Assembly (NCBI RefSeq): GCF_988242995.1
Contig: NZ_OZ547043.1
Length of the DNA stretch: 64,000 nucleotides
Reading direction: 5' to 3' (one strand)
Below, one piece after another: positions 38,219 to 38,578 of the stretch. Made by a program: the position numbers and the translations under genes. Numbering within the stretch: the first letter of the stretch is position 1; each line of letters starts with the position of its first letter. The notes beneath the pieces were generated by a model. The model was not told where the DNA came from. It did not search any database and saw nothing but the letters and a program-made list of their open reading frames with translations.

Positions 38219-38578
38219 ATGACCAAACGCCAGGGCAAAAACCGCAGGCGCGTTAACCGTCTTATTGAACTATGGCCTGAATTATTCAGCCTGGAATCAC
38301 CGAAGCCGCTTAAGGTAGGGATATTTGAAGACCTGATACAGGATATTGCCGTCAGGGCGCTGGCTTTTGGGTCAGGGGCATTACGTGCGGCGCTAGCATC
38401 TTATGCTCATTCTCCGCGTTATTACCGTGCCTTAATGGCTGGTGGCGTGCGTTACGATCTGAATTGCCAGCCATGCGGTGAGGTGACACAACAGGAACAG
38501 CAGGACGCGGAAGCACGACTGATGGCACTGAAAGAGAAGCGCAAACGTAAGTCGAACAAGGAACAAGCTGGCGTATGA
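38219..38578 (+). CDS. FinO/ProQ-domain RNA-binding protein
   Basis: 119-aa ORF; PLKVGIFEDL...ALASYAHSPRYYRALMAGGVRYDLNCQPCGEV resembles ProQ N-terminal FinO domain (PLKIGIFQDL...YTSSWRYL...RVDLDGNPCGEL). Confidence 0.7.
   Translation: MTKRQGKNRRRVNRLIELWPELFSLESPKPLKVGIFEDLIQDIAVRALAFGSGALRAALASYAHSPRYYRALMAGGVRYDLNCQPCGEVTQQEQQDAEARLMALKEKRKRKSNKEQAGV

Follow-up and report, generated by a model that had tools for sequence, protein, structure and literature searches.

What is a FinO-type RNA-binding protein of about half the length of ProQ doing on a mobile island of the Escherichia coli chromosome? The question is raised by an open reading frame (ORF) encoding 119 amino acids (aa) at positions 38219-38578 of a 64,000-nucleotide stretch (the window) of contig NZ_OZ547043.1, RefSeq assembly GCF_988242995.1. 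An earlier note, made from the letters alone, had read this ORF as a stand-alone FinO/ProQ-domain protein that would act with a cognate small RNA. Our analysis favors another answer, to which we give a probability of roughly three in four: the ORF is the FinO-domain tail of a 178-codon gene, the gene belongs to a phage satellite of the phage-inducible chromosomal island (PICI) type, and its intact product has the layout of FinO, with a domain that would clamp RNA.

The ORF itself, which runs from ATG to TGA on the plus strand, was confirmed, and so was its proposed family. Pfam ProQ/FINO (PF04352) matched the 119-aa translation over positions 6-107 of the 109-position model, with an independent E-value of 5.6e-25 and a score of 87.9 bits, and the NCBIfam FinO and ProQ profiles matched it with E ~1e-18. 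The solved structures matched by sequence were ProQ (5nb9, E 2.6e-13, the best), FinO (1dvo, 3e-10), NMB1681, RocC and Lpp1663. The assignment to the FinO/ProQ family is correct, far beyond chance. The motif by which the domain had been recognized needs correction: the window protein reads QPCGE (DLNCQPCGEV), and NPCGE is the ProQ version in the alignment. Four PHROG families, all of unknown function, matched the ORF; close relatives of the FinO-like protein were not found in the phage collection. RefSeq already annotates the gene, which belongs to a known family; the satellite-borne FinO subfamily is an uncharacterized member of it.

The interrupted gene and its intact alleles

Upstream of the 119-aa ORF, and in the same frame, lies an ORF of 56 codons; only its TAG stop codon (38210-38212) and two further codons stand between the two. 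The nearest complete genome, that of E. coli LH13-b (NZ_CP100525), agrees with the window over 2.2 kb in every base but one, which turns the TAG into TGG. In that genome RefSeq annotates a single 178-aa coding sequence, WP_048230357.1, "ProQ/FINO family protein", which spans the stop site. The ORF is therefore not a stand-alone protein. It appears to be half as long as ProQ because a TGG-to-TAG change at codon 57 cuts a 178-aa gene, and the intact product has the size of FinO (186 aa), its C-terminal two-thirds being taken up by the domain.

A 61-nt query centered on the stop found 51 complete RefSeq E. coli genomes, none of them identical (best 98.4%). The exact intact 178-aa sequence was present on at least 1000 contigs and the exact 119-aa product on 34. 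The identical TAG occurs in three independent samples (L031, L032 and L035), which comprise other assemblies and gut metagenomes. The stop in the window is therefore genuine, an allele carried by a minority, rather than an error of sequencing.

The 56 codons upstream of the stop are genuine coding sequence, and the extension that they encode is under purifying selection. The ratio of nonsynonymous to synonymous polymorphism (pN/pS) over ten alleles was 0.43 for the extension when pooled, 0.16-0.36 in divergent pairs, and 0.28 for the domain. The N-terminal motif M-T-x-L-T-I-N/S-R-K-P-K-G-I-Y-G was nearly invariant in 24 homologues, with M1, T5, I6, R8 and K9 invariant or nearly so. A Shine-Dalgarno-like AGAGG is located 10 nt upstream of the ATG at 38042; nothing Shine-Dalgarno-like was found within 5-12 nt of the ATG at 38219. 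In several intact homologues the internal Met encoded by the latter ATG is replaced by Leu, Thr or Ile, which points to the long form as the ancestral unit and argues against a designed internal start. The window copy, a nonsense allele, is a poor starting point; the proper object of study is the intact 178-aa allele, WP_048230357.1.

Layout of the intact protein and its known relatives

An AlphaFold model of the 178-aa protein was built with a 24-sequence alignment. Residues 1-58 are predicted to be disordered (predicted local distance difference test, pLDDT, <50), and a domain is modeled with confidence at residues 60-175 (pLDDT 85-94). Its helices lie at residues 62-77, 94-105, 111-122 and 125-133; a small hairpin comes next, and then a long helix at the C-terminus (150-175), past which the protein continues for 4-8 residues. 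It has no linker or Tudor-like domain. In a Foldseek search of the model against the PDB the top 26 matches were all FinO, NMB1681, RocC or Lpp1663, with FinO in first place; the next match had E>4. As modeled, the intact protein consists of a disordered basic extension (~58 residues), a FinO domain and a basic C-terminal helix, a layout that is FinO-like and not ProQ-like. The 119-aa ORF contains the whole folded domain and none of the extension.

In the complex of RocC with a terminator, Gly52 belongs to a beta-turn, Arg75 to an N-cap, and Tyr87 and Arg97 to the pocket of the 3'-nucleotide (PMC9674577). These residues align to G93, R115, Y127 and R137 of the 178-aa protein. All 24 homologues have Y127 and R137, and conservation of G93 and R115 among them is at least 90%.

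FinO of the F-like plasmids (PDB 1DVO) resembles the satellite protein in several respects: it is encoded by a mobile element, is of similar size, and has the same order of extension, domain and basic C-terminal helix. It was the best Foldseek match (E 4e-6, root mean square deviation 2.4 A over 106 columns), and hhalign aligned the two domains with a probability of 98.3%. The proteins differ in that identity within the domain is ~33% and that the helix before the domain is shorter in the satellite protein. The genetic context is also different, since the satellite gene adjoins ssb, not the end of a tra operon, and is accompanied by neither FinP nor traJ. Homology between the two N-terminal extensions was considered and rejected, as hhalign does not detect it; the LTxxRK motif and the Pro-Trp before the basic stretch, which occur in both, are resemblances by eye only.

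ProQ of E. coli and Salmonella (232 aa, PDB 5NB9) shares the PCGE motif, and its residues R32, K35, R58, Y70 and R80 have the equivalents K88, K91, R115, Y127 and R137. In contrast to ProQ, which is encoded by a core chromosomal gene and continues into a linker and a C-terminal Tudor-like domain, the satellite protein is an island accessory and has its additional segment at the N-terminus. The putative 119-aa product, a bare FinO domain with short tails, would resemble NMB1681/ProQ of Neisseria meningitidis and Lpp1663 of Legionella pneumophila. These are, however, native full-length proteins, whereas the minimal form in the window comes from a nonsense mutation and its expression is putative.

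The satellite island and its distribution

The gene is carried by an island of ~9 kb, which lies at a tRNA-Pro gene between yejM and yejO. The island is bordered by the 3' end of tRNA-Pro, CTCTCGTGCCGACCAAA (attL, ~31963), and by a degenerate copy of it, CTCTCGTGGACCAAA, just before the yejO terminator; a longer direct repeat at the borders was not found. In the reference genome, too, yejO comes next after the island. The gene order is int, alpA-like gene, isrK-like RNA, C4 RNA, icd-like gene, orf61, DUF4222 gene, DUF927 primase gene, iterons, ssb, finO (interrupted), perC, orf69, terminator, inverted iterons and PmgG-like gene (Table 1). The start codon of perC overlaps the stop codon of finO (ATGA).

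Enterobacterial PICIs are defined by an integrase, a regulator of the AlpA/MerR/Stl type and a primase-replicase in conserved order (PMC10085698). The window island has all three, in the form of int, the alpA-like gene and the DUF927 primase gene, and with its iterons and ssb it bears out the view that the ORF is carried by a satellite-like mobile element. It differs from the PICIs and capsid-forming PICIs described in the same study in that neither small terminase nor capsid genes were detected among the island ORFs scanned, only the PmgG-like gene; tra genes are absent from the island as well. We conclude that the island is a PICI-type phage satellite, and that finO is the middle gene of an ssb-finO-perC unit beside a putative iteron origin.

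Table 1. Features of the island and of its left and right borders (window coordinates)
Feature	Position	Strand	Evidence or remark
tRNA-Pro	31901-31974		adjoins the island integrase
Island integrase (int)	32184-33428	+	NF007246, 557 bits
AlpA-like helix-turn-helix regulator	33692-33883	+	phrog_66; PF05930 (weak) on a 98%-identical homologue
isrK-like small RNA with intrinsic terminator (GACGC-GCCA-GCGTC + T6)	34287-34363	+	Rfam RF01394; candidate ligand only
C4-type antisense RNA (P1 c4 / P4 CI type), upstream of the icd-like gene	34388-34475	+	Rfam RF01695
Icd-like gene, 3' of C4	34529-34717	+	RefSeq annotation; phrog_29966, phrog_1743
DUF927 primase/helicase-type replication protein	35209-37344	+	phrog_1139 DNA primase, E 1e-166; RefSeq DUF927
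Iteron cluster 1, primase-ssb spacer, putative origin	37365-37505		ACTTGTCCCA / TGGGACAAGT, 21-nt spacing
ssb (single-stranded DNA-binding protein, SSB)	37581-38006	+	TIGR00621, 66.6 bits (cut-off 53.95)
Complete finO-like gene, 178 codons in intact alleles, in-frame amber here	38042-38578	+	single frame throughout
N-terminal extension ORF, 56 aa + TAG	38042-38212	+	basic, Q/T/K-rich; motif LTI(N/S)RKPKGIYG
TAG nonsense codon in place of Trp57 (TGG)	38210-38212	+	comparison with nearest genome
FinO/ProQ-domain ORF	38219-38578	+	ATG to TGA, 119 aa; holds the entire folded domain
PerC-family regulator	38575-38859	+	RefSeq; PF06069 on a 97%-identical homologue; phrog_994, E 1e-35
Terminator-like hairpin + T-run	39370-39390	+	probable end of the ssb-finO-perC-orf69 transcript
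Iteron cluster 2, inverted relative to cluster 1	39658-39782		alignable with the L007 and L008 spacers between primase and ssb
PmgG-like head-morphogenesis protein, 198 aa	40088-40684	+	phrog_1114 (PHROG 1114), E 9e-60
Probable attR	40910-40924	+	repeats the tRNA-Pro 3' end (31963-31979) in degenerate form (CTCTCGTG-GACCAAA)

The ssb-finO unit is common to 21 IMG/VR contigs of 11-14 kb and longer, in which integrases and primases vary. The right halves of the relatives contain either a small terminase gene (as in L008) or a set of capsid, protease, portal, HNH and terminase genes (as in L013), and the FinO-bearing relatives are therefore classical or capsid-forming PICIs. In related islands a plus-strand terminator is found at the spot equivalent to that of the window, after perC or after the next ORF. 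With the exception of L002, ssb was immediately upstream of finO in every FinO-bearing island examined, and there are sister islands with the same backbone but without finO (L028-L030). finO is thus an accessory insert after ssb, and the next gene is either perC or a phrog_1957 ORF followed by capsid genes. ProQ/FinO had 0 occurrences in the census of PICI satellites (PMC10085698).

The pairing of a FinO-domain protein with a PerC-like regulator had been considered an unusual module. It is neither rare, as the ssb-finO-perC block was matched at least partly in 1100 of the 5426 complete E. coli genomes, nor obligate: FinO occurs without PerC in the capsid-forming islands L013-L026, and PerC without FinO in L030. 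The two genes are independent of each other.

Several minor features of the right part of the island were recorded. The two mutually inverted iteron clusters (ACTTGTCCCA/TGGGACAAGT, both with a spacing of 21 nt) bracket the 2.15-kb ssb-finO-perC-orf69 segment, an arrangement reminiscent of an origin with a second cis-acting replication region. Past cluster 2, the non-coding segment 39788-39950 is 74-84% conserved near the right ends of L013, L014, L020 and L022, and could be a packaging or regulatory site. Island L004, near-identical in other respects, lacks the PmgG-like gene; this gene and the P1-type C4/icd module hint at a P1-like helper.

Candidate RNAs, proposed role and rival explanations

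The two non-coding flanks that the earlier note had named as places for a partner small RNA differed in content. The left one (33884-34528) does hold RNA genes, namely the isrK-like RNA and the C4 RNA. The right one (38860-39660) had no Rfam match at E<=1; it contains a 69-aa ORF (phrog_7206), the terminator-like hairpin and the start of iteron cluster 2. The isrK-like RNA of the window scores 47 bits (E 6.8e-8), just under the gathering score of 50, and at homologous positions isrK is above the gathering score (80 bits in L007 and L020, 52.9 in L004). C4 scores 76 bits (gathering score 45, E 4.7e-13) and matches the full-length model (positions 1-87 of 87). The tandem of isrK-like and C4 RNA upstream of an icd-like gene resembles the immI arrangement of P1 and the isrK arrangement of Gifsy-1. 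Both RNA genes are overlaid by a RefSeq pseudogenized "ash family protein" (34110-34490), probably a protein call over non-coding RNA. IsrK is listed among the ProQ-associated prophage small RNAs of Salmonella (PMC5391140), which makes it conceivable that the FinO domain binds the isrK-like RNA. The two island RNAs are possible ligands, not specifically linked to finO. A literature search found no paper linking FinO to C4 RNA or to E. coli PICIs.

Other candidate RNAs were examined and rejected. A FinP-like antisense RNA was considered for the conserved minus-strand terminator at 34133-34152 with a 40-nt block at 34177-34216; however, a conserved ORF begins within the block, and the fold is no better than that of shuffled sequences (z -0.08). 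The terminator stem shows compensatory changes across islands (GGCGACC/GGTCGCC versus GGCCACC/GGTGGCC). The block of ~40 nt is 90-95% conserved while its surroundings diverge. The number of E. coli genomes with the element is 738, and capsid-forming PICIs without FinO are among its carriers. The YlcI/YnfO-family gene that precedes it elsewhere is absent from the window, so that the terminator is orphaned here. A possible antisense terminator over the DUF4222 start (34941-34956) has an invariant stem that lies in conserved coding sequence and is present in FinO-less islands, and its T-run is not conserved. A weak minus-strand hairpin in finO (38246-38262) lies within conserved codons (KNRRRVNRL) and shows base changes that are strand-ambiguous. 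Weak hairpins inside ssb were dropped. A small RNA at ~39266-39395 was rejected as well: no promoter passed the scan there, the segment is conserved solely in the near-identical L004, and the hairpin fits an operon terminator better.

By analogy with characterized members of the family, the FinO domain of the intact protein would clamp the 3' end of a structured RNA (a terminator hairpin and its U-tail, the latter in the Tyr127/Arg137 pocket) and protect it. The flexible basic extension would supply RNA pairing and help an antisense or small RNA to act on its target, as in FinO, FopA and RocC. A review of the family ascribes duplexing and strand exchange to such extensions, and affinity and protection to the domain (PMC9977716). 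The most plausible roles would be control of satellite replication or induction, which is suggested by the position of finO in the replication module, or control of a helper-phage transcript; we weigh the two equally. Small FinO-domain proteins of the FopA/PcnR type are likewise encoded in or near the replication module of mobile replicons, and they control plasmid replication through antisense RNAs (PMC9977716, PMC8136791). The analogy makes a role in copy-number or replication control plausible for the satellite protein. Unlike in the plasmids, no antisense RNA could be established against the island primase or ssb genes. As for the amber allele, its certain product is a 56-aa peptide; at best, re-initiation at the ATG 6 nt past the stop would yield the putative 119-aa domain. 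Such a bare domain could bind and protect RNA, but would do so without the extension thought to give chaperone activity.

A wider hypothesis, which we hold to be improbable as it stands, is that E. coli PICI and capsid-forming PICI satellites carry a FinO-type chaperone of their own, with the LTINRKPKGIYG extension, which sets satellite replication or induction or interferes with the helper through a satellite or helper RNA. If true, this would constitute a previously undescribed RNA-level layer of the satellite-helper conflict, in which alleles detaching the extension from the domain would switch a matchmaker to a mere RNA binder. Alongside Hfq, the FinO-domain proteins form one of the major classes of RNA chaperones in bacteria, and those studied in mobile elements all control a key step of their element (conjugation, copy number) through antisense RNA. 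Here the replication module of E. coli phage satellites is home to a well-populated FinO subfamily.

Several results weigh against the favored explanation. The first concerns the family profiles. The protein scored 66.5 bits with NCBIfam NF010317 (FinO, fertility inhibition protein; curated cut-off 136), of which profile positions 73-180 of 186 align to residues 67-174 of the 178-aa protein, and 63-65 bits with NF003434 (ProQ equivalog; cut-off 127; profile positions 10-118 of 205). Because the scores are far below both cut-offs, function cannot be transferred from either protein, and the intact protein represents a separate FinO/ProQ subfamily. The second concerns the RNAs. C4 and isrK were present in just 4 of the 17 FinO-bearing islands that include the icd region; the other 13 lack both, and for five of these the search at E<=0.1 was likewise negative. 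In the other direction, 1666 of 5426 E. coli genomes carry the isrK-C4 segment, which lies in prophages and on ~100-kb plasmids as well (320 plasmid places), and all three copies sampled (one satellite-like island, two prophages) had no FinO gene within 6.5 kb. The 34133-34216 element was found in 3/3 of the FinO-less islands sampled, in which a minus-strand gene of the YlcI/YnfO family precedes it. No FinO-specific RNA element was found among the ~30 loci sampled. The third is that lesions are frequent and may reflect nothing more than decay of the gene in a degenerate island.

The lesions bear on the strongest rival, according to which the gene is a plain pseudogene, the amber codon being a loss of function in a decaying satellite remnant that makes no functional FinO-domain protein, and the ORF having no role. 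We put this at only slightly below an even chance. A different allele at the same locus has TGA at the same Trp codon (L004-L006). Other lesions are a stop at Q27 (L033), a deletion that takes away the 5' part (L034), a fusion to SSB in frame (SSB::FinO, L036) and two frameshifts, one in the extension (L002) and one inside the FinO domain (L027). L002 yields a 114-aa form with many cluster members, and its upstream ORF ends in an ATGA that overlaps the domain ATG. The TAG and the TGA at one Trp codon were considered as a sign of programmed recoding or selection, an idea that was abandoned: the coincidence is not beyond chance, as two nonsense transitions would share a codon with a probability of 0.12 for the extension and 0.06 for the whole gene, and lesions of other types occur as well. 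That the domain seems to be spared is partly ascertainment, since the exact 119-aa sequence served to retrieve the alleles. We read the recurrent lesions as ordinary decay of an accessory gene. The stop at codon 57, the next ATG without a Shine-Dalgarno sequence, the small size of the island with its undetected terminase and capsid genes, the many independent lesions in other strains, one of them inside the domain, and the small share of the amber allele among the contigs all agree with a pseudogene. On the other hand, the stop lies 6 nt ahead of a conserved in-frame ATG, a geometry that permits termination-reinitiation; int, alpA, primase, ssb and perC of the island are intact; and the amber allele persists, being present in several samples that are unrelated to one another.

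Another explanation, which we consider unlikely, directs the protein outward, to helper-phage or host RNAs: as a satellite-encoded mimic or competitor of host ProQ, or by binding an antisense RNA of the helper, it would tune helper development or the induction of the satellite. The gene is an accessory insert across satellites that differ in integrase, primase and packaging module, which fits an outside-directed function, and no conserved island-encoded RNA accompanies it. The FinO-like proteins of plasmids that have been studied to date, however, work chiefly on RNAs from the replicon that encodes them or from a cohabiting one (PMC9977716), and there was no PADLOC match, a result that also led us to reject a role as a defense system.

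The explanation that survives worst, and that we regard as very doubtful, is that the protein is a dedicated chaperone of the island's isrK-like and C4 immunity RNAs, stabilizing them and promoting their pairing with the icd leader, which is the idea of the earlier note in a specific form. In its favor, both RNA genes are within the same island, the isrK-like RNA ends in a terminator hairpin and U6, the element that FinO domains recognize (PMC9674577), and there is the Salmonella precedent of IsrK and ProQ. The co-occurrence described above nevertheless fails in both directions, so that C4/isrK had to be rejected as a general cognate partner and the cognate small RNA expected by the earlier note was not recovered in this pair. 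P1/P4-type C4/CI RNAs are also not known to require a FinO-like protein.

The Rfam search gave two further matches. An int-alpA RNA (RF02996, 45.5 bits) was found at positions 179-246 of L003, an Escherichia marmotae relative, and was not detected in the window. In the window, an L25 ribosomal-protein leader (46.9 bits) is located at 28160-28185 on the plus strand upstream of rplY, an ordinary chromosomal context.

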